Shown: positions 15,637 to 64,000, counted from the stretch's first letter. The stretch: 64,000 nt of DNA from Geosiphon pyriformis uo1 (GCA_016748015.1 JAAOMT010000627.1:434001-498000); one strand, 5' to 3'. The notes: generated from the letters alone by a model not told the origin. Program-made: numbers and translations.

Positions 15637-15649
15637 TTATTCTCTCCTT

Positions 15650-29385: not shown

Positions 29386-29421
29386 GGGCACAATATACAT
29401 GACAAAAGCAACCAAGATAAA

Positions 29422-30057: not shown

Positions 30058-30072
30058 AAAAGAAGAAAATAA

Positions 30073-37382: not shown

Positions 37383-38678
37383 TCAATCACCGCTTGCCTG
37401 AATCTCGGCTTTCACGACTAGTCTATTTTTCGATTTTATAAATTTGGCCTTTGCTGTTGAGATATCAACAGTAAATGGCAAACTTTTATCCAGCTGATAA
37501 TATGAAGGAGCATAGAATATAACTCGAGACGATTCTATTTCTAATGTTGAGCTTGAAATTGATTGCTAACAATTTAAAATTAAAAAAATTCGTTAGAACA
37601 AGGATTATCATAAGCTATTTTATTAATGTGTCATCAATCGAATTTACCATAGCTGGAATTTCAATGAAAATGAATGCGAGGGTTTTCCCGTTGATTTTTC
37701 GCTCTAAGAAGGAAACTGCTGGCTCAGGAGAGGAAGTCCCCATTTCCTTAATTTCAGTAATCATGGGTGATGGGCGATGAGATTCCGAAGATTTTGCTTT
37801 AACAGATTGAGTGGAAACCTCCTTAATAAAAGAAGGCTTCTTTTTCTCAAAATGAAGTGTAAAAATTTCCAGTTGGCCTTTGCATCGAGATTTGGGGAAT
37901 GAAATATCTAATTTTCGTTTCAAAGTTTATAACTTAAGTTAGAGGATTAAAAATTTAACCCGAACCAAGAAAAATTAAATACATACTACGATCAAGCTGA
38001 AGGCCATGCTTTTCCTCAATATGTTCGATTGCGAGTTCAGTAACAAAAATCTTAAAGTCCGAATCCACTGTGGTTTTTTTGTATGGCTTCGTGTTCAACG
38101 CAGCATCACAAACGAGATAATCGTTTCCGCCTTTCATATATACTTAAACAGTCAGTCTGAAGGATTGTTTGTAAATATAGGCTTAGGAATACTCGCCTCA
38201 ACAAACCTCTATCTTTATCTTTCTTAAGACTACCAATCATGAAAGGTATTTGATATGTTACACCCTGTTCTGCATTCAAAGCAGATATGATTTCTTTCTC
38301 AGTTGCTGCTGGAGGTTCAGGAACCTTATCCGAATAGCAAACATTGATGAGGAATTTTAAACCGGCTGGAAATTGGTCCGTTTCCGCCTTTGAAACGCTA
38401 GTTTTCACTACATATCCTGGTTTAGGCTCGAATTTTAGGACTCCCTTCTCCTGCTCAGTAGTGTTTTTTTTCAGCTGTACTCCTAATGATTCTGGATTTT
38501 GAGAAATTTGTGCAGAAAGCTCTTCCCAAAGACGAGCTTCTTCTGACAGTTTGGTTTCAGATTCTTTCAAAGAGTGAGCTTTGAGATCAAATAACGAAGG
38601 TAAAGACGTTGATTCAGTGTTATCAAAATCTAAATCTAGTTTCGACGTTTTAATATTCATAGTTCTTGTGAAGGTCAT
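37383..38678 (-). CDS. PIH1: PIH1/Nop17 domain protein (R2TP-type co-chaperone) with C-terminal CS-like domain
   Basis: Exons 38678-38207, 38130-37987, 37907-37648, 37565-37383 with GT-AG introns in phase. Motifs EPKPGYVVKT, KFLINVC, YQIP, VCD, ELAIEHIE. The start ATG could be a few codons downstream. Confidence 0.85.
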
Positions 38679-38989
38679 AATGGGTACCGTTTGATTGGGT
38701 ATTGTTTACCCTAGATACCCTCATTCTACTTCAAAATGTTAGTTTACAGAATTTTAAGACAAATTTGTTATATATTCATATTGTTTATAATTAGAAAAGT
38801 TTATTATGTGGTTTGTTTTCTAATAATTACATATCTATTTTGTAAACATCTTATTTATTTTATGATTTTTATATTTATTTTAGTTTTTTTAATTACTATA
38901 TTTGTTTTAAATATTCAGAATTTTTGAATTATTTATTAATAATTTAAGTTTATAATTTTTAAAATCATGTTTTTTTTCATTATAATTTT

Positions 38990-40790: not shown

Positions 40791-41654
40791 TGTTATAATT
40801 TAAAAATTTAGCAAAAGAATTATAAAATAATATAAATTATTCAATCATAATATAGCACAATAATAATTTTAGAAAGATAATGATTAACATAATAGCAAGT
40901 ACCATCTTGCAATAATAGCAAGCACTAGTTTACAATAGTGACCAACATCAACTGATCATAATGGTAAACACCAGATTGAAATACCAAAAAAAAAGTATTA
41001 TAATGTGTTTTTTCATAAAACTACAAACATATATATATATATAATAGCTTTAATATTAAGAAAAACAACAAAATCATAAAACAAATCATAAAAACAAGTT
41101 TATTTAACAGTTTTATTTTAATTATCTTCTAATTTTTATTTTAAAAATAAATATTCACAAAAATAAATATTCAAAAACAAATAAAAAAAAAATTAAAAAC
41201 TAAATAATCACAATTTAAAGTATTAAAAAACTTATTTGTATTATTTATTGAATAAAACTATTATTTATTAACTGAATTTCTTGAAAAAATAATCCTTAAT
41301 TAAGATTATTTATGTTGTTACTAATTGATAAAAGCTTTATTGTAAAAATTAAGAAAAGTACTAAAGGCCATTAACATTCCATGTTTCTAGATTAAAAAAA
41401 CACATTAAACAATTGTAAGAATAGTTTTAGAGAAGACTTCAAACAGTAGATAAATTTCAGTTTAATCTTTGAAAAGAAGTACATAAATATACACAACAAT
41501 TAGGAATTGAAAAATAACTTATATTATAATATTAAAGAGAAAGTCTTTAGTATAACAGTAATATTATCACACAAATAGAATTAAGGAACTCATAAAAGAC
41601 TAATTGCAATTAAAACAAAATATTGGCAATTAAATATACCAAAAAAATTATTTC
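40791..41654 (+). mobile_element. Isolated LTR related to element B LTRs (3' terminus clipped)
   Basis: Begins TGTTATAATTT and aligns along its length to the sense strand of B's LTR. Lacks the last few bp and has no TSD pair. Confidence 0.8.
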
Positions 41655-44000
41655 AGACTTATTTTTATTGAAATCTCCACCCAAAACCACAAAAGTGCTA
41701 AAGTTAATAGCTTTGGCAATAAAAAAGTTAATTATTGAAGTCTAATCAAATCTAGCTTCAGTGAAAACACCAGCATATAAACCTAAAATTGTAACTAAAA
41801 GCTTGCCCTTAAAGAGAAGTTGCACTAAAATAACACAATTAAGAATCTTTTTTATCTTAGAAACATAACAAGCCAATAAATCATTCATAATAATAGCAAC
41901 CCCGATACCAAGAAAATTTTTTCCAAACCAGATGTAAAAATTTGTACTCACTTAAACTTATTTGCAATCCAAAGTTTAATATTAGACTTCAACTTTGTTT
42001 TTGTTATAAAAAAACCATGATATTTAAATCTAAATACCAATAAACAATGTCTTTCTGCTTAACAGAAACATTTAAACCTCTAATATTACAAGTAGTAAAT
42101 TTCCATACCAGATTTGTTATTAAGAAAAAAAATCTTTTACACTTAAGCTAAAATTGTCTGCTTTGGCCATTAGATCTATAATAATAACCAACAAATTGTT
42201 CATGTTTTTTTCAACTTTAAAACGACTAATTGATCAAAAACTACTACTTTCATAACAGTCTTATTACTAATAGCTGCATTCAAACTCTCACTTATTACTA
42301 TATTTATTCTTTGATTCTGTAATAAAAAAATTATTAACAGCTAATTTTCAGAATTAGGCTGAAAAACTATTGGTTTGAATGTGTCTTATTTCTTAACCAG
42401 CTTATTAACTTGCTCTGTAAGACTGTTAAAACTGTGCTCAAAGGTGGCAAACCTATTATTCATATCTACAAAAACCAGCAAAAAAGGCTTTATCTTTAAA
42501 AAGGAGCCAAAATTTAATAAATTGTTATGCATAAAAAGAAAAGAAAAAGACTTACCAGCAATCTTAGTCCAAAAAATACTACCAAAAGCTATTGGATAAA
42601 CAACAAATACTAAGTGTTTGGCATAAATGATAGCCAATTTGTTTTTATCTAAGTCCAATAATGTCTTATGAGAAAAATGACCAGAAAAAAAATTTTCATT
42701 TACAAAACAGCCTAAAAATATATGACCTAAATTCTCATACTTTGTATATTTGGCAAATTTTAGATAAGACCAATGTAAATTGACATTTCTTAATATTAGT
42801 GTAGTTATCATAACAACATCTAATAATTTGGCAAAGTTAAAACAAACAATTGCATATCTGGCTTAAATATATATAATCAGATAACAATTGATGACACATG
42901 TTTTCTCACCTACCAAAATAATGTAATTCCAAATATTATGTGTATTAATTTCTACTGGCAGAATATATAGCAGTGCCCTATTATAGTTTTTTGTATTTTA
43001 TAATTCTTTGTCTTTATTAGTTTTAGTAATATGTACAGTATCTTTCTCAATTAAAACAAACTATTTAGTTATGACTAAATCAGCATAATCTAATTGCTTA
43101 AATTCTACTACAGTTTTTTGTTATAATTTCACCAATTGCATATTGACTGATTTAATTACTCCAAACTCAGATAGTACAATATATACAGCCTTAGATAATG
43201 TCTTAATTGGAATTTTTTTTACAACCACAGCCCAATCTAAATGTTTAGCAGATTTTTTGAGATTGGTATTTACTAAGATTATCACATTTTTTGCTATATT
43301 AGAAGTTTGAACCAAGCTTAATTCAAAAGTAAACATTGTTTTAATAATTCCAGTAAATTTTAAAAAAATAGAGGCCTCTCCCAAAACCATTGATTTTTGA
43401 AAACAATTTTTTAATTATTGTTAGCTTTTTCTAAGATAATTTCCTAACAACTTTATTCAGTTCAATATTTATAGTAAAAAATTTTCTAATAGAAATATTG
43501 GCCAAGTTTTTTAAAGAAAGAAAAAATATCAGAAGAACATTTAATAATATATCATCATCATTATTACTCAAAAAATCAATTTTTCTCAATGCTTTTTTGG
43601 TCTGTATTAATAAATTTTTAGATGTTTAATTAAAATCTCTTTCAGCAAAAACACCACCTTTATTATAATTAAAGCTGGTCTCTTTAATTAAACACTTCTC
43701 TTTTATGTTAATACTGTCAGATTTAGTAGTATCACCAGTCTTAGAACTTTATAAATGATCACTTAATTTCTTAGCAAAAATTTTTCTGTTATTGACATTA
43801 TCTTTTAAAGCATCTTCTTTTTTTTTCTTTCTAAAAAAAGCAGGTTTAACACTAATACTAGAGCCAGAATCTTTAAGAGTCTTTTTTATAATAGCAATAT
43901 TAAGACCAACAGTGGTCTTATAATTAAGCAAAAACAGTTTGAATTTATTGTACTGAATGTTAAAAACTTCTTTCAAAAAACTTTTTGACTTTTTTTGAAA
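41655..44000 (-). mobile_element. LINE 5' fragment (ORF1 and start of APE endonuclease)
   Basis: ORF1 pieces 43976-42120, then WKFTTCNIRG (~42100) and VVLGGDFN (~41680). Truncated at the LTR. Confidence 0.8.
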
Positions 44001-44199
44001 ATTTAGGATAAAAAAGAGAAAAAAGTTTTTATATTTAGTTTTATAACTTAAAAAACTATTATATTAATTATTTTTAATAATTTAAATAATAATTAAACCT
44101 TTTTTTTTTAAATTAAATAAATTATAAATTTTAATTATAATTACAATTAAAAAAAATAGATTTTTAATTTTATTAAATATTTTATTTTAAATATTAATA

Positions 44200-44760
44200 T
44201 TTTTTTTATTAATATTTAATGAGTATAACTTAATTATTATTTAGTATACAAAAACTAACTAAGTAAATCTAACTAAATATAGTTTATATATTTATTATAT
44301 ATAATTAGTTACTTAAGTCAATTAAAACAATACTATGTATTTATATAAATCTTTATATTATCACTAATACTTAAAAAAAATAAGTCTTATATAGTCTAAA
44401 ACTAATAATAAATAACTTAATAATATTAAGTAAACAAATAATTTTTACTAATATAAAACTAGATAAATTATAAAAAACTATAAACAATTTCTATATTACC
44501 AATTAGACTACTTTTTTTATGTCTATTTTAAACTTTAATCTAAATAACTATAATTTATTATAATGTTTTTTAACCAATTAACAAACAAAATTAACTATTA
44601 ATATAGTTTTTTTTCTATTATCAAAAATTAAAACTGTCTTATTAGTTTAGTTTTTAAAAACAAAACTTTTGTACAAGATTGTATAAATACCAATAGCTAA
44701 AATTTTCAATAAAAAAATATATAATACCAAGGATAAAAAGAGAAAACAACTTCCTATTAA
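44200..44760 (-). mobile_element. 5'-truncated LINE 3' end
   Basis: T-tract 44200-44207, eroded family 3' UTR and ORF2 C-terminus (LYKSFVF, ~44660). Confidence 0.65.
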
Positions 44761-45504: not shown

Positions 45505-48500
45505 ATGGGGCTGCCAAATCTCGTTGTTGTATATTTCAAACGCACAGAACGCATTGCTCTCACACGTATACTTCGTGAATACATTCAGTTTTCATACTCT
45601 GAACATCCTGACGCCTATACTGATGACTTCCGTGTCCTCGATGAGTTAAGAGGCGATTGTGTGAATTTGGAAGTGCATCACAATGCTTTGAACCGACTTC
45701 TTAAGTAAGTTCTTTTAAACTTTCATGATCGATTTATCACTAATTTCATAATTTAATTTTTTTCTCAACTTAGATATTATGGACAATTGGTTTTTATAGG
45801 CTCGAAATTCCCTATTGACGTAGGTTCGACCTCGACAGATAGCATATTCGAGGTAGTTATGCTCTTCTTTTCATCTAGGTTGCTCTCCATCTTTTAGGTG
45901 GGAATCGAATTTCCTTGGTCACTTGCTTTTTCCGAGGACAAAAGGCTTAGTATGTTCTCGTGCATACGTTGATATCAAACACTCCCAAATCAAGGTTTTA
46001 ACTTTCCTTCTTTCAGTTGCCCATAGAAATTTCTTTTACGAGAAAGCATGTGTTCTCTTCAACATTGGGGCTATGTACAGCCAACTAGGAGTTGCCGAAA
46101 ATAGATTTACTGCCGCTGGCGTCAAAAAAGCTAGTCAGCACTTTCAGGTGATTTCTGTAAATTTTTGCCTCATAAATTATTCCATTTATTTTAAAACTTT
46201 TCTAATCCCTCTTAAAGTGTGCAGCTGGTTGTTTTACCTATTTGAATGAAGTGATCATACCGGAAATGAGAATTCCACCTACGGTAGACATGTCTATAAC
46301 TACATTAAATGTATTAAGAAATGTTATGTTGGCACAAGCACAAGAATGTTTTTGGCAAAAGGCTGTAAATGGTTAGTAGACTATCGAGCAACATATTATC
46401 TATTTTCCTTGTACTTTTTCAATCAAAAGTTTCAATGTCACAATAGACAAGATGAAAGATGGGACCATCGCAAAATTGGCCGGTCAGGTTGCTGATTTTT
46501 ACGAGACCGCCCATGAGCTGAGCGTCAATGATTCAAATGTTTCTCAATTATTAGGGCAGGTTAGTGGATGAATTACTTAATTAATTTTCAAATTCATAGT
46601 TACAGTTTTTATATTGCAATTAATCATTCGATTTATTACAGCAATTTATCACACATCTTCAAGGTAAATCTTGGCATTTTCTAGCCGGCTCTGAATTTCG
46701 GAAGTCATCAGAAAATATCAGTCAAAATAAATATGGAGATGAGATTGCAAGATTAAAAGTAGCCGAATCTCTGATAAAAAGAGCATTGGGCCTCCAGAAA
46801 AATTTACGAGACTCGGTCATTAACGATTTGAAGGTCCCTATATAATAGCTTTTCTATTTCGTTCAATATTAAATAACTTTAAATTTTGCTTGGCCCTTCA
46901 GTTTAACCATAAAATTTATTTTAGTCATTAGAAAAACCCATTAACGATAACCTTGTTCGCGCTGAGAAGGATAATGATCTCATATATCTTCACTCTATTC
47001 CCTCTGCGTCCTCATTACCTCCAATTGGGCGTGCCAAGATGGTAGAAGCCACTGTTCCACCAGAGGTCAAGGATCCAATTTCACTGATGAATGAGAGATC
47101 AATATTGGGTGAACCTTTATTTGTACAACTTGTACCTTTTGCAGTGCATCAGGCTATCAGCGTCTATTTTGATCGCAAAGATACCTTGGTGAGGGAAATT
47201 ATTGGTCGCCTTTTGGAACTGACAAATACCTGCAAAAGGTAATTATCAGATTCCTGTTTTTTCCTTACTGCTTCTGAAAAGAGGGTATATCTCTTCATTC
47301 CTTTATTTTTTTAGCACACTCCAATCTCTGAAATTGCAAGGTGCTCTTGAGGCTCTAGAAGAACCCGTAGGCTTACCACCTACTTTAATCCAAAAATCCA
47401 ATGAGGTACGGCAAGCTGGTGGATTAGAAGTCTTAAAAGAGAAGCTTGAGAGAGTGCAAGAACTAGAGCACAACGATACTACTATCCTGGAGGAGGTAAA
47501 TTAATGATGCCCTACAAACGTTGATTAGATGAATTCTAATATATTATACTGTGCCAGGCTTTTGCTTTATTAGACCAAGAAATAGCAGAGGATGAAGAAA
47601 TACGAGAAAAGTATGCAGAAAAATGGCAGCTTCCTCCATCTGATTCTGTAAATCAAGAACTTGTACAGCAAGGTGTCAAGTATCGCGATGTCCTAAATGC
47701 TGCGCGTAATGGTGATCATATAATTGCGCGTAAACTAGAGGATTGGTCAACAATTATTGAATTGCTCAATGCTAGCCAGGTATCTAGTATATCGATTTTT
47801 CAAAAACAGGGTTAAACAGATGCCCTATTCTAACAGTTATATATGGAATTTGTAAACGATTTTTTAAGGATAAATTACTGCGTGCAGTGCCTGCAAGCAC
47901 ACAGACCTATGATGATTCTAATTCTTGCGTGAGTCAACTTCGTGGTTTATACAATCAAGCCCAGCGTTTAATGAATGATCGGGAGGAACGAATTGCAGAA
48001 GTGCAGAAATTTGGAAATTCTGATGATATAGGTAATTAATATTGAACGTGTAAAGATTTGAATCGACGGAACGTTTATAAACCCCTAATATTCATGTAAT
48101 TCAGGGCCTGATCTTCGGAAAGAAGCCGCCAAAATCACGGCAAAGGGCATAGGAGTCAAGATCGAATCTGCGCACTTTGAAGACTTTTTCGCTCAACATT
48201 TGAATAAATATGATCCCTATTTACAGCTAGTGAAATCAGAGACTGACACTCAAGAGAAACTTATAACTTCAATAGTAGTAAGTTCAGCTATAAGTTATCA
48301 TTGCCATTCTCTTCAGTTCCTTTTAATAAATTTCGAAATTTTTATATAGGAAATAAATCAGCGGCTTTTGGAAACACGTCAACGATCAGATGCCGCCAAT
48401 TTAGGACGTATAAAAGCTGTGCAAAACTTGGAGATCGGATATGAAAAATTCAAAGAAATTTTAAAAAACTTAAGAGAAGGAGAACAGGTGCGAATAGCAT

Positions 48501-49057
48501 GATTTATAAGAAGAATTTTAACGAACATAAGAGCTTAAAAACTATCTTATTTTTTAGTTTTACCGATCATTCGGAACTACGCTAATCAAATGGAAAAATG
48601 ATTGCAAAACTTTTGTCGAATCCCGGCGGCATTATTCCCAAAATCATCTTGAGTAAGTTTATTTCAAGCTTAATTTACTTATCCAGTCACAGAAACTATT
48701 ACTGATATCTCGCTGGACCTTAGGCAATTGACCAAAACTTTTTCTGGAATGAGTATTTCAAATCCGCAACCATCTGCTCCTCCAGCATCACAGATTCCTC
48801 AATCTCACGACAGATTGAATAATTCAAATGAGTTGTGGAACAATGGTGTGGGTTTAGCTGTAAATTATGAAGAGCCTTCTCAATCAATGCTTTCATCTTC
48901 CCCTCATCCATCATCCCCTGTTCATCCAATTTGGACAAAAGGTATGCCTGTCTCCTTCGTATCTTCATCTGGACAACGATCGCCAACTACTCCAAATCAA
49001 ACTAGAGGAGCTACATGGACTAGGGGACGGGGCATCCATTTTAATGGGCGGAATTAA
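45505..49057 (+). CDS. palA: BRO1/ALIX-family pH-response protein PalA/Rim20 (multi-exon)
   Basis: Bro1-domain motifs YYGQL...[53 protein letters not shown]-domain-like helices, Pro/Ser-rich tail ending W..GRGIHF. More than a dozen short GT-AG introns. Confidence 0.88.
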
Positions 49058-50099: not shown

Positions 50100-50960
50100 G
50101 CTGTTTTTTAATATTATGCTTTTTTTATTTGCTTAAATAATTTACAAAGTCAAACAAATTTTAAAGTTGTCTGTTTTATTACTGCCAAATTTGCTGTTAA
50201 CTTTTTTAAAATATCTGAAAATATGATTTTTTTTGGTGTTTTTTAAAGTATTTTGGTTGTTTTAAAGTTAGCTTTTCTTTTTATAAAAATAAAGCTTTGG
50301 GTTTTTTAGTTTTGTTAGTGTTATTGTTAATATTATTTTATTTGTGTTAATTAAAATGTCTAATTTAATTATAACTATAGACCAATTTTTTTTTTGTTTT
50401 AAATAATAATAATAAATACATATTTATTGGTTTTAATTTTAATTAATATTAAATTATACTATTTAAATTAAATAATTTTGATTAATTATTACTAGTTTTA
50501 AAAACAAAACAAATTATATTTTAGAACATGTTTAATTTTAAGTATTTTATTGGATTATTAAATTATATTTGAATTAATAAAATAAATATTAAAAATACTT
50601 CTTTTTTTATTTTAAAAAGTTTTTGATTTAATAATATTTAAGCTATTATTATAAGTTGTTAAAAGTTTTTTGAATAAATAGCTTCTATTTTAATGCAAAT
50701 ATTTTTGTTAAAATCAAGTTAAATTATGTTAAGTGTTTGTTTTAGTTTTTTTTAAGTATAATTCTTTATAATATTTTTTTAAAAGCTTTTTTTAATAATA
50801 TTAAGACTGTTTTAAATATTTTTAATAAAGTTTTTTTTATTAAATTAAAGTCTATTAACTTGTAATAATATATTGTTATTTGTTTTAAAAACTTTTTTTA
50901 TTGTTATTGTTTTTGTTTGCTAATTTATAATAGTAAAAAAAATAATATTAAAATTTTATT
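50100..50960 (+). mobile_element. Eroded ORF1-type LINE-derived remnant
   Basis: TTACTAGTTTTAAAAACAAAACAA (~50490) matches the reverse complements of ~34760 and ~5190. Boundaries uncertain. Confidence 0.4.
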
Positions 50961-51115
50961 TTTTATTATTATTATTTTTTTATTACAAGTTTAACGAATA
51001 AAGCCCAACTACTATCTAGTACATAGAACCAAACTAAGAGGAACTAATTAAATACAGTTCATTTACTTACTACATGTAACCAGCCATATAGATCAGATAA
51101 GACAACACTATACAT

Positions 51116-51968
51116 TATTACTCATAGAATATAAGAAATATAGTATTATTAGTTAATAGATATTAGCCAATCAGATGTAGACGTAGTAAATGTGGAATTT
51201 CAAGATTCTTTTTAGAGGAATTGCAGGATTCCAGAAATTTCAGAATTCTCTGACAAGAAATCACAGGATTCCAGAATTCCAAGATTCCTCTTATCAAGAA
51301 TTGCAGAATTCCAGAAATTCCAGGATTCTTGTCATAAGAAATTGAAGAATTGAGGAATCTCAGATATGTATATATAGCAGTAGCATTAGAAGCAAAAAAG
51401 ACAGAATAGACACCAAGAGTTCTTAGCTTAGTTACTACAATCCTCAAATAAATAATTATTCACTATATCAAATTCACTTTTCACTATCAACACTTTATGT
51501 TGATAGTAATTAATACTTAACCACACTAGAACAATAGCTCTTAATCATGGCTATTGACAGGATACTAACTTGCAAATCACCTTGGCTTATTTCCTTATAT
51601 TTCTTTATTTTCTTTATGTTTCTTTGATTTTGCTATTGTGTACTAACCAATTGATTCAAAGTGCTGATTACTGACATTAAAGATTGCCTGGTAAAAGACC
51701 CCTGCAAGTGGGTAGAACATGTACAGAAGATATGGATTACTTACCAGAGGATTGTCAGCCACCAAGCTGAGAAAAAAATTAACAGACTTGCAAGTCTAAG
51801 AAGCTATAGATAAACAATTATTGAATCTCTGTCCATTATACAAAAGACTCATTTGGAAAACCTTTAGATACCAACTACTTAAAAATATTATCCACAATGT
51901 GAATAGCTTTTGAGCACCAAGTTATGGGTTTAGTATTCACTCAACACTCCAAAGACACACCTGTAACA
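51116..51968 (+). repeat. 5' LTR of element C
   Basis: TATTAC...GTAACA. CCAAT box, array of GAATT/GATTC motifs, TATA, AATAAA. Confidence 0.95.
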
Positions 51969-51970
51969 TT

Positions 51971-51987
51971 TGGTGCTCCCTGTGAGG
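51971..51987 (+). promoter_or_regulatory. Primer-binding site of C (probably elongator tRNA-Met)
   Basis: TGGTGCTCCCTGTGAGG directly after the 5' LTR. Confidence 0.72.
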
Positions 51988-54900
51988 TATAATCTTACAG
52001 AGAACCAACACCAACAAACACTATCCAAAAGAGACAGAATCAGAAAATATAAGAGCAAACCATTTAGGATTTGTGAAATTCTTATTTCAACATTATTGTC
52101 AACACTTAGGATTAAACCCCAATCATATATCTGCCAAATCAGTCTTTAATTTTTATGTCAACAAAAAAATTTTCTCTTTGTTAGGAACACTAGTGAATAC
52201 GGAATCAGCAAAGAAAACTTTCTACAGAAAATTAATTCAAAACACCAACCTACCAACAAATCATAATTTCGCATCTATTATCACTGAGATCAACAAAGAA
52301 ATTAAACATCACACCCAACAAAGATATCTGATTACATATGCTAGTAAAGACAAAAAAAAACTACAAACACCAGCAGTAACTCCCAGAAAAATACAACTAC
52401 CTACTTGGAAGAAAACAAGAGTTGAATCACCAACCAATCTATCTTATCACTATACACCTGGAAGCACCATCAACATTTTATCAACAGGCACATCCACATC
52501 AAACACAACATCAGCATTTGGACGATTCTCATTCCAAAGTAACCAAAGAAAAACAGAATTATTAGGACCATATGGCAAATACTTTGAAGGATTTAAATCG
52601 CAATCACCAACACCCTCAGGAATTTGATCACCACTGCCTCAACCAGACTTTGGAACCACTACCCCATGAGAACTATTTAAAGAAAAAGAAGAAGAAGAAT
52701 CAGAAGATTAAGAATTTACTTGCCAGAACCTGATCACTAAAAACCCGGAAGTTGAAACACTGAATCTTCAAACTCAGCAAAATTTAAATTTAAAAAACCC
52801 AGAAATCAAAACTCCGAATATTCAACCACCACCAAATCAGAACAATTAGAACCCCAATCTAATTAATCAACCAGACTTATCTCCTATTATTGTCATCTAC
52901 CCACCACCAGTTGAACTGATTGGCCAGCCACCACAACAATCACACCAGCAGATTCAACAACCACTAGTACTACTTCAACAACCACCACAACCCAACTTAG
53001 ATCCAATGGCATATGCACTGATAGCCAAACTCGAGAAATTTACTGGCGAAGAGAACAACACTCAAGCCTGGATCAACGACATCGCCAAAACAATTACTGC
53101 CAATAACTGAGATAATGCCAGAACCATGCAAGTCATCCCCTATTTTCTCAAAGACATGGCAGACTCTTGGTATCACAGTCTAGCCCAGAAACCTCAAAAC
53201 TTTAATGCCTTCAAATTAGAATTTTTGAGGTATTTTAATGATAACAACAGTATTAACCACTTGGCAAGTACTTTCACCACCATCAAACAAGAAGACACAG
53301 AAGCAGTCACTACTTACTTGAGATGCTTCCATAAAAATCTGCACCAAATTCAGGCAATTCAAGCTGACTACTTTATAGTGCCACAGATCTTGAACCAATT
53401 CATTCAAGGATTGCACAGTAACATTCTCCAGCAAGTATGTTCAATGCATCCAATTAATTTCCCAACCATCATAACTCATGCCAGAGATTTTGAAGCCACT
53501 GAATTAGAAGCTAATCATGCCCAAGCTGTGAATATAGTAATGAATAGATCATCTGACCTGGATTCCAAGCTAAAACAATTCAGTGACAACATCAATCAAA
53601 AATTGGAGGGCTACTTAGCTGACAATTGTGCAATTTATCAGCCACCCCAATGATGTAATGATTTAGGAAGCGTGAATTGTTTCCAGAATCAATCATGTCC
53701 AGGATTGTCTACTAATCAGTCATGACAGCCAGAAATGCATGTCTGCTACAACTGTGGTAAACAAGAGCATATTAAGACCAACTGCCATACTTATAGCAAC
53801 CCACAATCAGGAAACCATTATTGAAACCCCGATTGCCAGTTTTAGACTCCGAATTACCAATCCAATTAAGTGCAATATCAAAATGCTTACCTGCCTATGA
53901 TGCAGCCACCAATTTATCAGCCACCAATATATCAACCACCAATTTATCAGCCACAGCCACCAACAATTTATTAACCGCAGCCACAAGTCATTTATCAGCT
54001 GCAGCCTTAAGTAATTTATCAACCCCAACAAGTTCAAATGCCACACCAAAATTCAGCTATGATGATGTCAGGAAACCTGAGATCCAGAACCACCCAAAAC
54101 TGAAGATCAGCAATGGTCATTCATTAACCAATTTTCAGTTCATCAGGCCAACAATCAGGATCTTGTTAGCAAAATTCGGATATCAGTTTCACCCAAAACC
54201 CGAATTCCCAGAACTATTTAAGTCTCCTGGTTACTCCAGAAAATATTATCTCTAACAACCCAGAACTCGATTAACAACCAACAATACTTACCAACAACAA
54301 TCTACCAGCAATCATCACCAATGATGAATTGTTAGCAGCCATCTTTTTGTTTGAACTTGAGGAAGTTATGTCAGTCCCCTTATTCAATGAAGCAGCTCTG
54401 GAAGAAAAACCCATCACTGCTATATACACTAATACAAAAGTTGATGGCTACTCCATCAAGTTAATTCTTGACAGTGGTTCAGCAGACAGCATCATTACAT
54501 GACAACTCATGGATCAATTAGGTCACTGAGTTGATCAAGCTGTCAGTGCTAGAATCATTACTGCTAATGGCACCACAAAAATGCCTATTGGTGAAATCGA
54601 CGACTTCCCAATTGAAGTTAATGGCATCATTACTTCTATCAAAGTCTTAGTGATGGAGACAACCCAATACTAAGCACTAGTGGGCAATGATTGGTTGTCT
54701 AAAAACAATACTGTTCTCAACTGGATTACACAGGAGCTCCAGCTCAGCCAAAATGGCCAGCACATGCAAGTACCAGCAACGTGTAGCCATTTTAAACCTA
54801 ATAACGTCACGACATCAGCACTGCTTATCAACCTTGAGAAAAAACAACTAAAGTCTACTTGGAAGACATACCAAGTATCGTGAGCTGACGTTGACCACAA

Positions 54901-57900
54901 TGAACTGCTGTCAATACTCGCCTGGGATGACAATAACAATAAAAAGAAGGGACAAGAAAAAGAACCTACCAGTGGAACTACTATCGATACTTGGACTGAT
55001 GACAATGACCACCACGAGCTAACACCAATACTATCATGGGACAACAACTCCAAGGGAAAGCAAAGAGAGGAATTTATTTGGGAAATGGACGACCTGACCT
55101 AAACCGACAACAATGAAAGAGAACCAACACCAAGCTGAGAAGGGGAAGAAAGCAACAAAGGGAAAAGAAAAGTGAAAAAAGAAGAGCCACTGCCAACAAA
55201 CCCGTATACCTCCTGTCAACACACAACACCACAACAATTCACCTATTGCCGACCCAAACTAGTGTGCATCAATTGTGGCAAAAAATTGTTGTCAATGAGC
55301 GCATGCTGTGGCAACGACGAAGAGTATCAGACAGCAACCAAGTTTTATTGCTGCACATGTCTTGTCAAACACTTTGGAAGACCAAAATGAGTGGGAAAAT
55401 AAGATAATACATTATGTTTAGCCTGTGGAGAAACTCTCCTCAATGAAGAAATGTGAAATGACATTCCTGGAAAAAGAGGAATGTGCGATGTTTTCTGCCA
55501 ATACACAATCCTCATCAGCAATTGGATCAAGAAAGGAACACCAATAGAAGCTGCTTAGAGAAGAGCTGTACAGTGATTGGACAGCTGTCCACACAACAAT
55601 AATGAATTATGGCAAATGGCAATCACCAAAATTGAAGGTGTGTCATCAGAAGAAATCAAGACAATTAAAAACAACCCATCAAAACCCATCGAGCTTGACT
55701 GGGACACAGAGCCAGTCATAAATTTTCTGGAACCAAAAAAGTTCTATGAATACTACCAAAACTTGACACCCATTAGAGAGGAGCAAGAATAATGGCTAGC
55801 ACAGTTGAATACAAGACTGTGTTATCATTGTTTAATTCTCAGTGACTTTGAATATTGTAACAATTGTGATCTCATTTACAATCCACCACCATGCATGATC
55901 TACACAATTCCCAAAGAGGAAGAACCAATCAGCAGATGCGCATCGAAATCGGAATCACCATTCAATCCCAATTTAAACTCTGACAATGACGACAATGAGA
56001 ATAACAGTTCCAGTTCCATTCAAAATGACAATAACAATGACAATGATATTAACTCAGATTCAAATTCTAACTTAAACTATGAACAATATATCGCGCTTCC
56101 TGACCTCACCAAAAAACAAGAGCTGAAATGGTTCAGCAATAATAATAAAAATATTATGCCAGAATGTGTGCATGATATTGATGCCAAATTTGACTTGAGG
56201 TATCCAGGAAAAGATGCCATCAAACTAGAACCACATTTGTGCACCTGCATTGATCTAAAAATAGTACTGGAAATCTCAGCAACAACAATGGTTCAATTAG
56301 TATCCTAGAGTAGTTTAGCAAAAAGAGAGATTAATATAAAAGGAGGAATAATTGACACAGGATATGTAAGAAATATTATTGCCATGCTACAAAATGACTC
56401 AGAAAAGGCCTATATAATAGAGCCAAACAAAAAAATAGCACAAGCAATATTTTTACCTTTGGTCAAGATAGCTCAGTTAGTACCAGTAGGAAATAGGGAA
56501 GAGTTAGGAATAACAGCAAGAGGGATACAAGAATTTGAGTTAACAGGTAAAATAGATGTATTAGTTAATATAGTGAAGAAAGAAATTGTTGGCCAAGGAG
56601 AAATTATCTCAACTGGTCAAGCTATTTGTATTCCACCATATAGCCAGTACATGCTAGCAATAGAAAGGAAAAAAAAGGAACAAGAACAGATTTTTGAGGC
56701 TGAAGCAAACCTTTGTAAATTAAAAGAGATTGGGCTGATCAATCTCTACATACTAGCCAAAAGCTATAGCTGCATAAAAATCCCCATCTACAACAACACT
56801 GGCAATATCATCAACATACCAGAAAGAACCACCATCGGATATTTAACCACAGAAATAGAAGACCAAACCCCAAACCCCATTTCAAACTTTCTACAACTTT
56901 GTGGATATGTCGATATCACATCACAAACAATCTATGGACAAAACAAATGTTATTTGCTCCAACCAGACCAATTAGAACAAATGAACATGAGAAATCTGGA
57001 CCCACTACAACATATGCAGCTCAAGATATTACTCAACAATTTTAATGACATTTTTGCCAGCGAAAATGAATTTGGTAGAACTGACATCATTCAACATCAA
57101 ATTAAGACTGGAGATGCAATGCCAATCAAACAGCGAACATACAGGGTACCACCAGCCAGTCATGAAATCATTCATCAAGAGATCAATCAAATGCTTGACA
57201 ATGGGCTAATCCAGCTGTCTATGAGTCTATGGTCATCACCAGTAGTACTCATCCAGAAAAAAAATGGGAAAATCCGCTTTTGTGTGGATTATAGAAAACT
57301 CAATGGAGTAACTCATAGAGATAATTACCTCATTCCACAAATCCAAGAATTATTCGATGCTTTCGGTGAAAACAAATGGTTTTCAACATTAGACCTGGAC
57401 AGTAGTTACTGGCAAGTAGCCATGGATTCAGCCGACAAAGAAAAGACAGCATTTATCACTAAAAAAGGGAATTTTGAATTTAAAGTAATGCTATTTGGCT
57501 TAACCAACACACCAGCCACTTTCCAATGGTTAATGGAAATTGTTTATACTGGCTTATTATGAAAATCAGTAGTTGTATACTTGGACAACACCAATGTATT
57601 CTTAAAAACATTTGATGATTATTTTCATCATCTTCAACAAGTGTTCGAAAGATTAAGAAGAGCAGAACTAAAGTTAAATGCAACAAAGTGTTTTTTTGAC
57701 AAGACAGAACTAAAATTCTTGGGACACATAGTTAGCAAAGATGGCATCAAAACGGATCCAGAGAAAATAGAGATAGTAAAGAACTTTCCAGTGCTGACCA
57801 ATATGACAGAACTGAAATCATTCTTGAGATTTGTCAGCTATTATCAATGTTTTATCAAGAACTTTTTCAAGATAGCACAGCCACTCAACCAACTGCAAAC

Positions 57901-59826
57901 CAAGAATACAAAATATGAATAGACAGAAAGTCAGCAAGAAGCTTTTGATATTCTGAAAAGAAAGCTCATTCAAGCTCCAGTACTGATCTATCCAGATCAC
58001 AGCAAACCATTCATCATCACCACCGATGCATCCAGCCAAGTATTGGGAGTAGTACTATCTCAGAGAGGACCAGATGACAGAGAACATTCAGTAGCATAAG
58101 CCAGCAGAGGTTTAATACCAGCCAAAAAGAACTATAGAACACTAGAACAAGAACACTTAGCAATATACTGGGCAGTCATAAAATAGAAAGAATACTTGAG
58201 CCAGAAGTTTGAAGTATACACAGATCACAAAGGACTAACATCACTTCAAAAACAAGAATTTGGAGATGGAAGACAGTCAAAATAGAAAATGATACTTGTA
58301 CCATATAATTATACTATACATTATAAAAAGGGAAAAGACAACGGAAATGCTGACAGTTTGTTGTGAATAAGACAAATTTAAGAACATTTCAACCCAAAAA
58401 TATAACAAAACCAGAACAATACCAATGAAAAATATAACAAAAAGATAAACATACAAAAATATCAACAACTACAACATTATATAAACACTCAACAGTTCAA
58501 GGGAATTTATCTCAAATGGAACAAAAGAGTATTGAACAACAATCAAAATATTTTATTATTCACCAAAATATACTTTATTGGAAAAATAGAAGAGATCTAG
58601 AGCAACCAACCAGAGTAATTACAGAACTAGAAAAAGAGACAATATTATTCAACATGTACTCAAATCCAACAGCAGGATACTTTTACAAAGAAGCAACCAT
58701 GGAAAGAACCAGAAAAAAATACTATTGGCCATCAATGTATCCAGACATCATCCAATATGTTCAAAATTGTGATGCTTGTCAGTGAAAAGGAGGTATGAAA
58801 TCCAGTAAACCATTAAGACCAATTAAAGTGGGACAACCATTTGACTATATTGGAATTGATTTAGTTGGACCATTAACAATCACCAACAGAGGAAACAGGT
58901 ACATAGCAGTAGCCATAGACTATCTCACTAAATGGCCAGAGGCGAAAGCAATTCAAAGAGCAGATGCAGAATCCGTTGCCAAATTTGTTTATTAAGATTT
59001 AATTTGTCGACATAGATGTCCAAAGGAATTATTATTAGACCAAAGAATTCATTTTGTGAACAAAACATTAACAGAATTGAGCCAAAGATTTGGAATTAAG
59101 AGACCACTATCATCACCATATCATTCACAAACCAATGGATTAGTCAAAAGATTCAACAGAACATTGTGTAAAGCAATAGCTAAGCTCAGCCAAAAAAACC
59201 AGAATGATTGGGATTTGTTGATACCATCAGTACTATTTGCTTATCAGACAATGAAGCAAGATACCACACAAGCAACACTATTTGAATTAGTATATAGTAG
59301 AACAGCAACACTACTAGTGGAAATAGAAGTCAGCACATACCCAACTGAACCAATAACAAAAGAAAATTTCAAAAACACATTGTTGAGAAAAACATATAAC
59401 TTAATAGAAACATTAGAAAATAAACAAAGAAGAGCAGCTAATAACATACAAAGATCACAAGAGAAACAAAAAGAAAGACATGATAACCAACTACCAGATA
59501 AACCAGTTGAATTCAAGATTGAAGACAAAGTATTACTACATTATACCAAAGTAGAAAAACAATAGAGTGGAAAATTCGACCCTAAATGGGACAGACCATT
59601 TCACATAAAAAAAATTCTAGGAAATAGAGCTTACAAATTAAGATTGAATAACAAAATCTTGACCAAAGCAGCACATGGAGATCGACTGAAACCATACCAC
59701 CATATAGTATTATCATCCACCAGTAATATTTCACAATTAAGAGTACAGAGAATACTAGTTTAACCAGATAAGATTCCATGAGATCTGGAACCAATCATTA
59801 TCATTGACAACAACACATTCAATTGA
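51988..59826 (+). pseudogene. gag-pol pseudogene of C
   Basis: N-terminal domain (52073-), capsid from ATG 53006, CYNCGKQEH knuckle (~53743), protease LILDSGS (~54465), Cys-rich domain (55260-55880), dUTPase (56155-56550), RT YLDN (~57580), RNase H TDAS (~58022), integrase IGIDLVGP (~58850). Many premature stops. Confidence 0.93.
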
Positions 59827-59879
59827 TCGACAAAAGAATATATAAGAACATGGTCGACGCAACAGAAGAGATCAGAAAA

Positions 59880-60509
59880 ATAGAAATTACAGACAATATC
59901 TATTCACTAGCCCAATAAATTTTTCAATTAATACAACACTAGGAGATAGAAATTACAATCAATCAACAAACCATTTGTTACAAAAATACGGCAAAGATAC
60001 CACAAAACAAAACACAGAAAAAACTTAAAAATGTTGTTGACAAGATCATAACCAAGATAAAATTGGCCATAAAAGAACAACAAATAGTCAGATTACACCA
60101 AAAACTTACCAGAGAAACTTGGACTTGGTGGACGCAACAATTTCCAAAAAACTATTGTCATTTTCACTTGGAACAACATGTAAATATCCAGAATTTGTAC
60201 ACCGATAAAACAAAATAGTTATTTGACACAACAATACTGAGACAACTGGAACAATTTGTGGGAAAGAACAATCTAACCACACAAGCTCAAGCTATTTACC
60301 AGCTATATATGAGATTTCAAGACTGACCAGAAATCTTACTCAACACAGCAATGGATACAGTTACAAGTAATCAATTAGGAAAAATGACCAATGCTCAATT
60401 TGAAGAACTACAAACTAAAATAACACAAGTAATACTCGAAAAAGAAGTTCAAGAAATAATTCAAGAAGAAGAATTAAAGGAATTAGATTTTGATGGAGCT
60501 CAATATTAA
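59880..60509 (+). pseudogene. ORF3 (unknown accessory protein) of element C
   Basis: 210 codons. Start is ATA, probably an eroded ATG; an in-frame ATG also lies at 59850. Motifs FPKNYCHFHL, LRQLEQFVGK, DFDGAQY*. Three premature stops of the CAA/CAG>TAR type and one TGA. Confidence 0.75.
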
Positions 60510-60522
60510 AAAAAGAGAATAA

Positions 60523-61375
60523 TATTACTTATAGAATATTGGAAATATAGTATTATTAGTCAGTAGATATTAGCCAATCAGATGTAAACATAGTAAATGT
60601 GGAATTCCAAGATTCTTCTCAAAGGAATTGCAGGATTCCAGGAATTTCAGGATTCTCCAACAAAGAATCACAGAATTTCAGAATTCCAAGATTCCTCTCA
60701 TCAGGAATTACAGAATTCTAAGAATTCCAGGATTTCTGTCACAAGAAATTGAGGAATTGAAGAATCTCAGATATGTATATATAGCAGTAGTATTAGAAAC
60801 AGAAAAGACAAAATGGACACCAAGAGTTCTTAGCTTAGTTATCACAATCTTCAAATAAATAATTATTCACTATATCAAATTCACTTTTCACTATCAACAC
60901 TTCATGTTGATAGTAATTGATACTTAACCACACTAGAACAATAGCTCTTGATCATGGCTATTGACGGGATACTAACTTGCAAATCACCTTGGCTTATTTC
61001 CTTATATTTCTTTATTTTCTTTATGTTTCTTTGATTTCGCTATCGTGCACTAACCAATTGATTCAAAGTGCTAATTACTGATGTCAAAAATTACCTGGTA
61101 AAAGACCCCTGCGAGTGGGTAGAACACATACAAAAGATATAGATTACTTACTAGAGGATTGCCGGCCACTAAGCTAAGAAAAAAATTGACAGACTTGCGA
61201 GTTTGAGAAGTTACGGATAATCAACTATTGAATTTCTGTTCATTATACAAAGGACTCATTTGAAAAACCTTCAGATACCAACTACTTAAAAATATTATCC
61301 ACAATGCAAATAGCTTTTAAGCACTAAGTTACAGGTTTAGTATTTACTCAACATCCCAAAAACACACCTGTAACA
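60523..61375 (+). repeat. 3' LTR of element C
   Basis: Direct repeat of 51116-51968, followed by TSD ACAT. Confidence 0.95.
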
Positions 61376-61403
61376 ACATCTATGCTAACAAATACATTAC
61401 CAC

Positions 61404-62008: not shown

Positions 62009-62983
62009 NNNNNNNNNNNNNNNNNNNNNNNNNNNNNNNNNNNNNNNNNNNNNNNNNNNNNNNNNNNNNNNNNNNNNNNNNNNNNNNNNNNNNNNNNNNN
62101 NNNNNNNNNNNNNNNNNNNNNNNNNNNNNNNNNNNNNNNNNNNNNNNNNNNNNNNNNNNNNNNNNNNNNNNNNNNNNNNNNNNNNNNNNNNNNNNNNNNN
62201 NNNNNNNNNNNNNNNNNNNNNNNNNNNNNNNNNNNNNNNNNNNNNNNNNNNNNNNNNNNNNNNNNNNNNNNNNNNNNNNNNNNNNNNNNNNNNNNNNNNN
62301 NNNNNNNNNNNNNNNNNNNNNNNNNNNNNNNNNNNNNNNNNNNNNNNNNNNNNNNNNNNNNNNNNNNNNNNNNNNNNNNNNNNNNNNNNNNNNNNNNNNN
62401 NNNNNNNNNNNNNNNNNNNNNNNNNNNNNNNNNNNNNNNNNNNNNNNNNNNNNNNNNNNNNNNNNNNNNNNNNNNNNNNNNNNNNNNNNNNNNNNNNNNN
62501 NNNNNNNNNNNNNNNNNNNNNNNNNNNNNNNNNNNNNNNNNNNNNNNNNNNNNNNNNNNNNNNNNNNNNNNNNNNNNNNNNNNNNNNNNNNNNNNNNNNN
62601 NNNNNNNNNNNNNNNNNNNNNNNNNNNNNNNNNNNNNNNNNNNNNNNNNNNNNNNNNNNNNNNNNNNNNNNNNNNNNNNNNNNNNNNNNNNNNNNNNNNN
62701 NNNNNNNNNNNNNNNNNNNNNNNNNNNNNNNNNNNNNNNNNNNNNNNNNNNNNNNNNNNNNNNNNNNNNNNNNNNNNNNNNNNNNNNNNNNNNNNNNNNN
62801 NNNNNNNNNNNNNNNNNNNNNNNNNNNNNNNNNNNNNNNNNNNNNNNNNNNNNNNNNNNNNNNNNNNNNNNNNNNNNNNNNNNNNNNNNNNNNNNNNNNN
62901 NNNNNNNNNNNNNNNNNNNNNNNNNNNNNNNNNNNNNNNNNNNNNNNNNNNNNNNNNNNNNNNNNNNNNNNNNNNNNNNNNNN
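62009..62983. other. Assembly gap (975 N)
   Basis: Run of N. Confidence 1.
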
Positions 62984-64000
62984 TTTATAGCAGGGTTAAA
63001 AGACAAACTGATTAAGAAAGTCTGTCCACATGCTTCAGCAGACTTAGCAACTGCTATTAGACATGCAAAGAGCTATGAAATGGCAATGGAAGAAGCAAAT
63101 CACACCAAGCTTGTAAATCTTGCAATTGGAAAAACCAGCTCAGCAGCTGAAAAGAAGATAGACCAACTCACAAAAAAAGTTGAAAGCTACTTCACAAACC
63201 AACAACAACAGCAACAACAACCACAAAGATATCAACCCTCACAACGATGTAACCAAAACAATTTTGGATCATCATCCAACAACCAATCTCAAACTTGTCA
63301 TTATTGTGGAATTTTAGGGCACTGGAAATGAGATTGTAAGAAATTACAAAGAGACCAACAAAACAGGAGTAATCAACATTACTCTTCACCACAACAATCC
63401 TATTATCAATCTTTACCACCAACTTATTATTTACCAAGACCACAAAATCAAAACAGTTACTATCCACCAGCTCCACAATCAATGCAGCAACAATATCAGC
63501 AATCTTTACCAATTCAGCCATATCAGACACCACCCACTCAACAATATCAAGTACCAGCAAGAAGATTGGTTCTACATAACCAATCCACACCCCAAAATCA
63601 ATTGCAGAATAACCACAACAGAATCAATTCAAATAACCAGTTGGTTCCCCGAAATTTGGGTCAGCAAAGACCCAATCACTATTACACTCAACCCAGTTAT
63701 CTTACAATACCAGAGGAATCAGATTTTCAACAAACTGCACTTTTTGAAGATGAAGTTGCAGTGCTAAGATCAAACTCTTCCAACCACACCATTCCACCAG
63801 CTCAAATTGCCAAAATGCTAATCTGTCAGATATATTTCCATTTGAATTTGAAGCAAATGAATCACCATTTCTGCTTAGTAATGCAGCAATCAATGAACAG
63901 AAAGCAATTACTGCCATGTACACAGAAGCTACAGTAGAAGGAAAACCCATTCGCTCAATTTTAAATAGTAGATTAGCTGGAAGTATTATTACTTACCAGC
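62984..64000 (+). pseudogene. Ty3/Gypsy gag C-terminus and protease start (element D or another element)
   Basis: FIAGLKDKL...AKSYEMAMEEANH, knuckle CHYCGILGHWK, Q/P-rich linker, AMYTEATVEGKPIRSILNS (eroded ILDSG). Confidence 0.85.

Follow-up and report, generated by a model that had tools for sequence, protein, structure and literature searches.

What kind of transposable element is encoded by three related copies in a 64,000-nucleotide stretch of the Geosiphon pyriformis genome (the window), and how does it arrange and express its genes? An earlier note on this DNA, made from the sequence alone, had described an undescribed Ty3/Gypsy clade organised like a complex retrovirus, possibly with a regulatory or counter-defence module.

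Three decayed Ty3/Gypsy elements with one layout

Element C occupies positions 51116-61375 on the positive strand and is uninterrupted by any other element. Element A (11215-30887, positive strand) is split just past its protease by element B (14824-24414, negative strand). The genes flanking the elements are eukaryotic (PIH1, BRO1, and a ubiquitin-like gene). As the note had stated, each element is bounded by a 4-bp target site duplication (TSD): ACAT for C (51112-51115 and 61376-61379), GCAT for A and, on the positive strand, ACAC for B. The two LTRs of C (51116-51968 and 60523-61375, positive strand, 853 bp each) are 90.0% identical, and the 5' LTR has a TATA-like element at 51369 and AATAAA at 51447. 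The two LTR hairpins reported as common to A and C were found again (in C, at about 51483-51507 and 51532-51556), with z-scores of -3.7 to -4.8 against 200 shuffles. A putative primer-binding site (PBS) beginning with TGG is located 2 nt past the 5' LTR (51971-51988, positive strand), a similar site follows the LTR of a metagenomic relative, L008, and a polypurine tract (PPT) is found at 60508-60519 (positive strand). Two direct LTRs with TG..CA-type ends, PBS, PPT, and TSD are the structural marks of Ty3/Gypsy elements, the 5' terminus of C now reading TA. The order protease (PR), reverse transcriptase (RT), RNase H, integrase, with Gypsy-type domains, was recovered by Pfam and in trees. All 105 matches to the third reading frame, ORF3, were Geosiphon pyriformis gene models. 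The three copies are almost certainly dead Ty3/Gypsy LTR retrotransposons of this fungus.

The gag-pol of C is a single frame (51986-58381, positive strand) that ends with TAA right after RNase H. It opens with an N-terminal Gag domain of about 118 aa (52007-52360) that has no Pfam or PHROG family, followed by the capsid (53003-53545; Retrotrans_gag, E = 1.6e-9), a nucleocapsid with one CCHC zinc knuckle (53744-53785), an aspartic protease with the motif LILDSG (54383-54790), and a Cys-rich region with 18 cysteines, five CxxC motifs, and no family match (55250-55975). A decayed dUTPase domain (56138-56560; Pfam E = 1e-10, best PDB match E = 2.6e-6), a second, motif-less dUTPase-like beta domain (56573-56905), RT (57053-57775), and RNase H as the final Pol domain (57908-58378) complete the frame. 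An open alternative frame at 53797-54255 was rejected as a gene, as it overlaps the Q/P-rich linker. Pfam detected Retrotrans_gag, aspartyl protease, dUTPase, RT, RNase H, and integrase H2C2, rve, and SH3 domains in C and the corresponding domains in A and B, the gag of B being identified by tblastn. Matches for all 11 modules tested were obtained with tblastn between C and A and between C and B, the weakest being the N-terminal domain of B (30% over 60 codons). The shared layout is thus well founded. So is the lack of a chromodomain: Chromo was absent from all seven integrases scanned with Pfam, and the same scan detected it in 7 of 34 other Pols.

The proposal that C serves as the uninterrupted reference copy holds for its continuity and not for its integrity. 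Its gag-pol contains 35 internal stops, its integrase frame 5 stops and one frameshift near the start, and its ORF3 4 internal stops. The RT reads YLDN where the relatives have YLDD, and is dead; the integrase reads VKRFN. The two LTRs differ by 83 transitions versus 2 transversions, with an observed/expected (o/e) CpG ratio of 0.24. The copies have decayed by transitions only. A dUTPase would not undo such C-to-T decay of integrated DNA. In intact relatives, the frames of Pol and integrase are open and the CpG o/e ratio is 0.8 to 1.2.

Integrase is encoded outside Pol

The note had treated integrase as the continuation of Pol. This reading fails: all three window elements have a TAA at the corresponding point right behind RNase H, at 58379-58381 in C, at 27960 in A (both positive strand), and at 17817-17819 in B (negative strand). 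In B, an integrase ATG is found 31 nt past the stop (17785, negative strand). The spacer of C (58382-58444, positive strand) includes a second in-frame TAA, and 27 nt of the spacer are identical between C and A. The separate integrase frame of C (58445-59826, positive strand) encodes the H2C2, core, and SH3/GPY-F-type end and starts, as in A, at a non-ATG codon. An integrase inside the Pol polyprotein, a usual though not formally defining trait of Metaviridae, was therefore found in none of the three. The stop in A and C could be parallel decay, because the integrase N-terminus lies in the Pol frame (offset 0) and 4 of 13 aligned stops of C coincide with stops in A. The case for a split integrase hence rests on B and on the intact relatives.

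In the RT tree, A, B, and C group as a clade (SH-aLRT 99) and, together with 12 relatives, form a 15-row clade (SH-aLRT 98). This tree was rooted at the midpoint, with SH-aLRT as the sole support measure; 31 Cordylochernes rows were left out, and fused rows were subsampled to 40 proteins and 3 viral loci. No row of the 15-row clade has integrase in the Pol frame, with the protein end alone known for six of them, as opposed to fusion in 78 of the 94 rows scored overall. Four relatives (P0147, P0149, P0152, and P0153) have Pols that end 0 to 4 residues beyond the RNase H match, and the length of P0147 is identical in 8 of 12 cluster members. In P0150 and P0156, RNase H is followed by a tail of 263 to 403 aa that is not integrase, and no integrase was seen within the 231 nt available past the stop of L009. 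Three rows outside the clade likewise have no in-frame integrase match.

A separate, ATG-started integrase frame was present at at least five metagenomic loci of the clade (L006, L008, L014, L017, and L023). The L008 element was found again at 99% identity in contigs of four runs, the main contigs of which list no change at the stop; no RNA source was among the matches listed. Eight separate integrases form one clade (SH-aLRT 95), grouped largely as in the RT tree, and the RT and integrase trees agree. The metagenome scan yielded at least 598 stretches and at least 19 loci, so that the clade is undersampled; scans of viral contigs added four distant Gypsy loci and nothing further. None of 120 matches was a named reference element, and no description of the lineage was found in the literature searched. 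Repbase Reports, GyDB, subscription journals, supplements, and the G. pyriformis genome paper were outside its scope, and their element tables could include this layout. Within the literature searched, the grouping may represent an undescribed clade; the combination of dUTPase, ORF3, and missing chromodomain has been published for other elements.

Additional domains of the Geosiphon sub-lineage

The first dUTPase domain belongs to the trimeric type, with Pfam scores above the cutoff in A, B, and C and matches in PDB. The positions of the five conserved motifs of this type are recognizable over eight copies, each of them damaged. The enzyme would quite probably have been active and have kept uracil out of the cDNA. 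The second dUTPase-like domain, which the note had listed as a possible extra, is real and not special to these elements: of 72 unrelated Gypsy Pols, 65 have a homologous domain ahead of RT. Neither Pfam nor hhalign matched it directly to dUTPase (0.45% against the first domain). A profile of the 65 sequences, seeded by five matches of a weak first screen in which a shuffled control reached an E value of 0.007, gave hhalign probabilities of 92.7% to the second domain and 46% to the first. Pfam dUTPase matches, counted at any position in the protein, occurred in 5 of 34 Pols with such a pre-RT domain. The second domain may be a non-catalytic relic. The Cys-rich region is probably zinc binding; for it and the N-terminal domain, Pfam and PHROG scans returned nothing significant.

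In comparisons of C with both A and B, an excess of third-position transversions was found in the Cys-rich region, both dUTPase-related domains, and ORF3 (p from 1e-2 to 7e-5), and it was weak in the N-terminal domain. This excess would be a sign of past purifying selection on the extra modules; by the NG86 test, the Cys-rich and second dUTPase-like domains fall inside the neutral range. The modules had been expected to be inherited together. They are so in A, B, and C and not across the wider RT clade: the relatives have no N-terminal, Cys-rich, or either dUTPase domain. The N-terminal, Cys-rich, and dUTPase modules, seen in Geosiphon copies only, are additions of this sub-lineage rather than clade-wide traits.

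ORF3

In C, ORF3 (59850-60509, positive strand) comprises 219 codons, is predicted to be soluble and mostly helical, and ends on the PPT, as the note had observed. Its counterparts are found at about 29399-30057 in A (positive strand) and about 16321-15650 in B (negative strand). The TATA motif reported upstream is present in C (TATATAA, 59839-59845, positive strand), at 11 nt from the first ATG in C, 20 nt in A, and 58 to 100 nt from candidate ATGs in B. The spacing in C is too short for a promoter of the first ATG; if the motif acts as one at all, it would have to be for a start farther downstream, at a distance of about 41 nt. TATAWAW occurred within 130 nt of the ORF3 ATG in six of seven elements versus 70 of 843 background windows (8%), this background being drawn from the interior of C and the spacers of the relatives being more AT-rich.

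No hydrophobic segment was found in six ORF3 proteins (maximum 19-residue KD of 0.3 to 1.3). Together with the lack of an env match and the soluble helical model, this led us to reject an env-like ORF3. A first model, built with 65 close copies, had a pLDDT of 52 and a best Z of 4.8. A second, of the homologue P0303 with 58 sequences, reached a pLDDT of 86 and was helical and soluble; its best Z was 4.2, with none of at least 5 among 48,161 chains, and Foldseek returned no match at an E value of 0.001 in PDB or BFVD. An Atlas search with P0335 gave a best score of 0.86 and no family, and Pfam and PHROG scans of ORF3 gave nothing significant. One of 16 members matched DUF1016_N (YhcG-like) at an E value of 0.037, and ParB/KorB rows with a ParB-type HTH scored Z of 3.3 to 3.6, within background. 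The Geosiphon ORF3 aligned with the smaller ORF3s of relatives at hhalign probabilities of 1% and 25%, HMM searches against decoys revealed no link between them, and one clade relative, L005, has no ORF3. Tentatively, ORF3 may be a soluble accessory protein, the likeliest role being a nucleic-acid-binding regulator of the expression or integration of its own element.

Expression of integrase and alternative explanations

The interpretation we consider somewhat probable is that Gag-Pol ends at RNase H and is succeeded by two independent frames, for integrase and ORF3, the former most likely translated by restart and the latter likely from a short internal-promoter RNA. As in the family at large, transcription would be LTR driven, reverse transcription tRNA primed within Gag particles, and integration staggered by 4 bp. 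After terminating at the Pol stop, ribosomes would restart at the integrase AUG; a separately made integrase would then have to be brought to the cDNA through contacts with Gag, RNA, or DNA and not as a cleavage product of Pol. Termination-reinitiation has a nearly even chance of being the mechanism. An internal promoter is a plausible but less favored source of integrase, splicing is improbable, and readthrough or frameshifting barely credible. In five relatives (L007, L008, L014, L017, and L023), the spacers are 77 to 96 nt long with frame offsets of 0, 1, and 2 and no upstream ATG, and the offset-0 spacers contain further in-frame stops. The variable offsets and additional stops were grounds for rejecting readthrough and frameshifting.

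The same anatomy could also be served by a subgenomic RNA for integrase, made like that of ORF3 from an internal promoter or by splicing, a rather unlikely variant that would come closer to the foamy-virus analogy drawn in the note. It is favored by the T/A-rich spacers of the relatives, with CGGA in six of six (background of 0.2 to 0.6 per 100 nt), by the conserved 27 nt in A and C, by the TATA-like elements ahead of ORF3, and by the absence of the UGGGA reinitiation motif from the 90 nt preceding the stop in eight of eight elements; in the elements examined, stop and integrase start are separated by a gap without overlap. According to the available part of PMC5408684, LTR elements typically transcribe their ORF3 as a unit of its own, with a spliced message. 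However, in four of five spacers the 40 nt leading up to the integrase ATG are free of AG, hence no nearby splice acceptor there, and a TATA-like run was seen in just one relative's integrase spacer (L006/L007).

Could the elements instead be ordinary gag-pol Gypsy copies with a known dUTPase add-on, in which the stop after RNase H arose by decay, with ORF3 and the additional domains carried along as passengers? All window copies are full of transition-derived stops, some common to A and C, fungal Gypsy elements with dUTPase and additional ORFs are already known, and the second dUTPase-like domain is widespread. This account is nonetheless very unlikely, since the stop recurs, together with an integrase that begins at ATG, in intact relatives with open frames and undepleted CpG, the RT and integrase trees are congruent, and the modules carry selection signals. 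Less credible still is a retrovirus-like infectious element or a fungal complex retrovirus equipped with a counter-defence module. Three ORFs, a dUTPase, a TATA before ORF3, LTR hairpins, and 4-bp TSDs recall such viruses, but ORF3 is neither hydrophobic nor env-like, RT and integrase are placed among Gypsy Pols, the dUTPase position is unlike that of retroviruses, the PR-dUTPase-RT order is already known in Gypsy elements, and no defence-related family was among the matches. The comparison with complex retroviruses is not supported, and nothing observed points to a regulatory or counter-defence role.

Relation to known systems

With somewhat less than even probability, the elements belong to an old, widespread, and still active tricistronic Ty3/Gypsy lineage of soil fungi. 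It would recruit a free-standing integrase in trans and, instead of a chromodomain, use an ORF3 of new fold to regulate expression or targeting, Geosiphon having added a zinc-rich domain and a tandem of active and pseudo-dUTPase. The integrase of LTR retrotransposons and retroviruses owes its packaging to being part of Pol; where a lineage encodes the enzyme on its own, dosage and recruitment must be achieved differently, a requirement that can be tested in the intact relatives L008, L014, L017, and L023. If true, this lineage would break the rule by which LTR elements obtain their integrase through cleavage of Pol, and it would be a living intermediate towards Ginger-type, integrase-only transposons. 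The elements also supply three uncharacterised domains and hint at a dUTPase-like relic before RT in many Gypsy Pols. LTR elements make up 41.2% of the G. pyriformis genome in the available text of PMC11952901. With at least 105 gene models in this species, the family is relevant to how the genomes of mycorrhizal fungi expand and are annotated.

Metaviridae of the Ty3/Tf1 type have LTRs, PBS, PPT, capsid and nucleocapsid, PR-RT-RNase H-integrase, and a short TSD; the Geosiphon elements differ by an integrase outside Pol, a third ORF, and four extra domains. Foamy viruses use an internal promoter. With complex retroviruses, the Geosiphon elements share a dUTPase within the polyprotein and an accessory ORF on the 3' side that may have an internal promoter. 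Unlike them, they lack env and have RT and integrase of the Gypsy type; in retroviruses, moreover, integrase is cut from Pol. Retroviral dUTPases occupy other positions: lentiviruses have them between RNase H and integrase, and betaretroviruses fused to nucleocapsid, as far as the accessible portion of PMC4531489 describes them.

The bdelloid elements Juno, Vesta, and TelKA are alike in the PR-dUTPase-RT order, a family-specific ORF3, a GPY/F-type integrase end, and the lack of a chromodomain, and Juno has an additional Zn knuckle upstream of RT (PMC5408684, in the part available). Their integrase, however, lies inside pol, and their ORF3s are env-like, transmembrane, GDSL, or DEDDy. By description, the Geosiphon elements are set apart by a soluble ORF3 without known fold and a Cys-rich region of about 240 aa before the dUTPase. 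Among fungal Gypsy elements, dUTPases occur in Postia PosPlaTy3-3, -4, and -5, Phanerochaete elements, and Tuber Tmt1, and PosPlaTy3-5 has its dUTPase between PR and RT; the survey in PMC2864245 also records further ORFs of unknown function, its tree treats these elements as chromodomain containing, and its available text does not mention a separate integrase. Ginger DNA transposons likewise encode a free-standing Gypsy-type integrase, within terminal inverted repeats and without RT, in the portion of PMC2836005 at hand; compared by description, the Geosiphon integrase instead stays within an LTR element and coevolves with RT. The PR-dUTPase-RT order with ORF3 and without a chromodomain was already known from rotifers, and the PR-dUTPase-RT order from fungi; the lineage with a split integrase matched no description in the literature searched.

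Three decayed elements with a common layout

C is a 10,260-bp LTR element (51116-61375) flanked by the target site duplication (TSD) ACAT, with 853-bp LTRs that are 90.0% identical. Its relative A (11215-30887; TSD GCAT) is interrupted after the protease by another relative, B, nested on the minus strand (14824-24414; TSD ACAC). The earlier note had described 4-bp TSDs and a common layout for the three elements, and both descriptions held: all 11 of the modules tested were matched in A and in B by tblastn. In C, Pfam identified capsid, protease, dUTPase (E = 1e-10), RT, and RNase H in a single gag-pol frame (51986-58381, with X read at stops). The integrase follows RNase H in another frame and, as the note had observed, is without a chromodomain. 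By its domain content, the element is not a chromovirus. C had also been taken as an uninterrupted reference copy; it contains no insertions, but it is not intact, with 35 internal stops in gag-pol. Its decay consists almost entirely of transitions (83 versus 2 transversions between its LTRs), with a CpG observed/expected ratio of 0.24.

The gag frame apparently opens within the 5' LTR, in U5, and continues across the PBS (11950-12110 and 51880-52060); in A, U5 has an ATG in the frame that is read across the PBS. The gag frame of yeast Ty1 likewise begins in U5 and crosses the PBS.

The genes adjoining the elements are eukaryotic housekeeping genes, and host exons encode ubiquitin-like, PIH1-domain, and BRO1-domain proteins (36025-36396, 38106-38705, and 45857-49057). 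All 105 of 105 ORF3 matches were Geosiphon pyriformis gene models, with up to 91% identity. LTR elements make up 41.2% of the G. pyriformis genome (PMC11952901). A solo LTR at 40791-41658 is ~67% identical to the LTRs of B and has a candidate 4-bp TSD, TTAT. Directly after a 975-N gap (62009-62983), part of another Gypsy family occupies 62984-64000 and comprises the end of the capsid, a CCHC knuckle, and the start of the protease. An AT-rich dispersed repeat family occurs at 438-1130, 7960-8480, 44150-44700, and 50946-51115, a piece of it forming the left flank of C.

A stop codon separates Pol from integrase

The stronger point, overlooked in the earlier note, is a TAA after RNase H, found at the homologous position in all three elements. 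In B, the integrase ATG is retained 31 nt past this stop. In A and C, the N terminus of integrase shares the Pol frame, and the two copies frequently have decay stops in common (4 of 13); thus, A and C alone would not prove a split. The closest non-Geosiphon Pols (P0147, P0149, P0152, and P0153; ~49 to 52% identity over RT-RH) end at the same place.

A metagenome scan yielded at least 19 loci. At L006, L008, L014, L017, and L023, an open Pol stops after RNase H and is followed by an ATG-started integrase ORF of ~410 to 420 codons (the L006 copy is cut by the contig end). The spacers that were measured (L007, L008, L014, L017, and L023) were 77 to 96 nt long, had frame offsets of 0, 1, and 2, and contained no upstream ATG, which argues against both readthrough and a fixed frameshift into integrase. 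At L009, no integrase was found in the short stretch (231 nt) available downstream of the Pol stop.

The RT-RH tree, built from 61 rows, grouped A, B, and C with 12 relatives in one clade (SH-aLRT 98). A fused integrase was absent throughout this clade, as opposed to 78 fused among the 94 rows scored overall; six clade rows are known as proteins only, two of them (P0150 and P0156) with non-integrase tails. These C-terminal tails of 263 to 403 aa contain Cys/His and lie where other Gypsy Pols carry integrase. Eight separate integrases formed one clade (SH-aLRT 95) in an integrase tree of 50 rows.

The L008 element is an intact, nearly invariant 7.7-kb unit that was met in many soil metagenomes and has a circular assembly. 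It was present at 0.97 to 0.99 of sampled words in 20 soil DNA runs from 15 studies, which are nonindependent because every one was flagged as a possible source, and no change was listed at its Pol stop in the main contigs of four runs. Its near-invariance, recurrence, and circular assembly make it probable that the element has multiple copies and was active recently.

Extra modules of the Geosiphon elements

Among 120 long Pols, 3 had the N-terminal domain, 3 the Cys-rich domain, and 4 the dUTPase; all of these were from Geosiphon, and none of the three domains was found in the non-Geosiphon relatives examined. These modules are a property of the Geosiphon sub-lineage; the co-inheritance expected by the note extends to A, B, and C but not to wider relatives. 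Transversions are informative here because the decay process barely produces them. Whether C was compared with A or with B, every module had an excess of third-position transversions, the N-terminal domain against B being the one exception. In NG86 comparisons with a transition-only null, the N-terminal domain, dUTPase, and, narrowly, ORF3 passed; the Cys-rich and second dUTPase-like domains failed.

The first dUTPase is of the standard trimeric type. The second dUTPase-like domain resembles a beta domain preceding RT in 65 of 72 unrelated, non-Geosiphon Pols (hhalign, 92.7%) and is not peculiar to these elements. The profile of this beta domain matched the first dUTPase weakly (46%; E = 2e-4), and Pfam dUTPase matched 5 of 34 Pols carrying it. 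The second domain is most likely an old noncatalytic relic. The conserved pre-RT beta domain (Pols P0155 to P0229) resembles a degenerate dUTPase in many unrelated Gypsy Pols; the term "dUTPase-like" was not met in the papers listed by one literature search.

ORF3

Searching 1.84 billion representatives with an ORF3 profile produced 100 matches. Ten, mostly the weakest, were looked up: eight were from Geosiphon and two (P0303 and P0313) were intact-looking proteins. The P0303 model was confident (pLDDT 86, pTM 0.69) and mainly helical, with no structural match in PDB or BFVD. A search of ORF3 for a transmembrane segment found none. An ORF of 137 to 207 aa occupies the ORF3 place at L008, L014, and L017, is partial at L012 and L023, and is absent at L005; its homology to Geosiphon ORF3 is unproven. 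The ORF3 proteins P0303, P0313, P0327, and P0328 share an ELSLEEE-like motif at the end, which, by comparison with C, may reflect a frame that passes through the PPT and enters the 3' LTR. The note's TATA-preceded ORF3 was borne out in part: in 6 of 7 elements, a TATAWAW is no more than 130 nt from the ORF3 ATG, versus 70 of 843 background windows, but in C it is just 11 nt from the first ATG.

Proposed life cycle

Transcription would be driven by the 5' LTR, as in Gypsy elements, with reverse transcription primed by a tRNA at the PBS and from the PPT, and integration with a 4-bp stagger. Gag-Pol is in one frame in C, and other clade members also have a single gag-pol ORF. At L009, L012, L014, and L017, TTTAAAC directly precedes the gag stop and is likely a -1 frameshift site. 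Processing of Pol would release PR, the Cys-rich domain, dUTPase, RT, and RNase H, integrase being made as a separate protein.

For integrase synthesis, we tentatively favor reinitiation downstream of the Pol stop, both because the spacers lack AUGs and are short and because this route would couple integrase dose to Pol. The UGGGA motif was found in none of 8 elements, and CGGA was present in all 6 of 6 spacers. An internal promoter for integrase is possible, if less probable than reinitiation, and splicing is unlikely. ORF3 RNA would likely come from an internal promoter, and the best guess at its product, held with some doubt, is a nucleic-acid-binding accessory factor. The dUTPase would reduce dUTP during cDNA synthesis, a role that would amount to housekeeping for the element rather than counter-defense as a shown function.

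Comparison with known elements

C, A, and B are Ty3/Gypsy elements and are not retroviral. The earlier note was mostly right on anatomy, but its analogy with complex retroviruses is weak, since retroviral dUTPases are placed elsewhere (PMC4531489). The interest lies instead in the stand-alone integrase and the uncharacterized ORF3, Cys-rich, and N-terminal domains. Our literature search, which covered listings and opening lines of abstracts of openly accessible papers, turned up no account of a Gypsy lineage whose integrase is a separate ORF, and dUTPase and Glomeromycota are both absent from the main text of a survey of LTR elements in fungi (PMC3248453). A dUTPase between PR and RT has already been described in PosPlaTy3-5 of Postia, in a text that cites further fungal cases (PMC2864245). 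The bdelloid elements Juno, Vesta, and TelKA also have a dUTPase intervening between PR and RT; they carry ORF3s but lack a chromodomain, and an additional Zn knuckle is present in Juno (PMC5408684). Ginger transposons have a free Gypsy-type integrase, yet without RT (PMC2836005).
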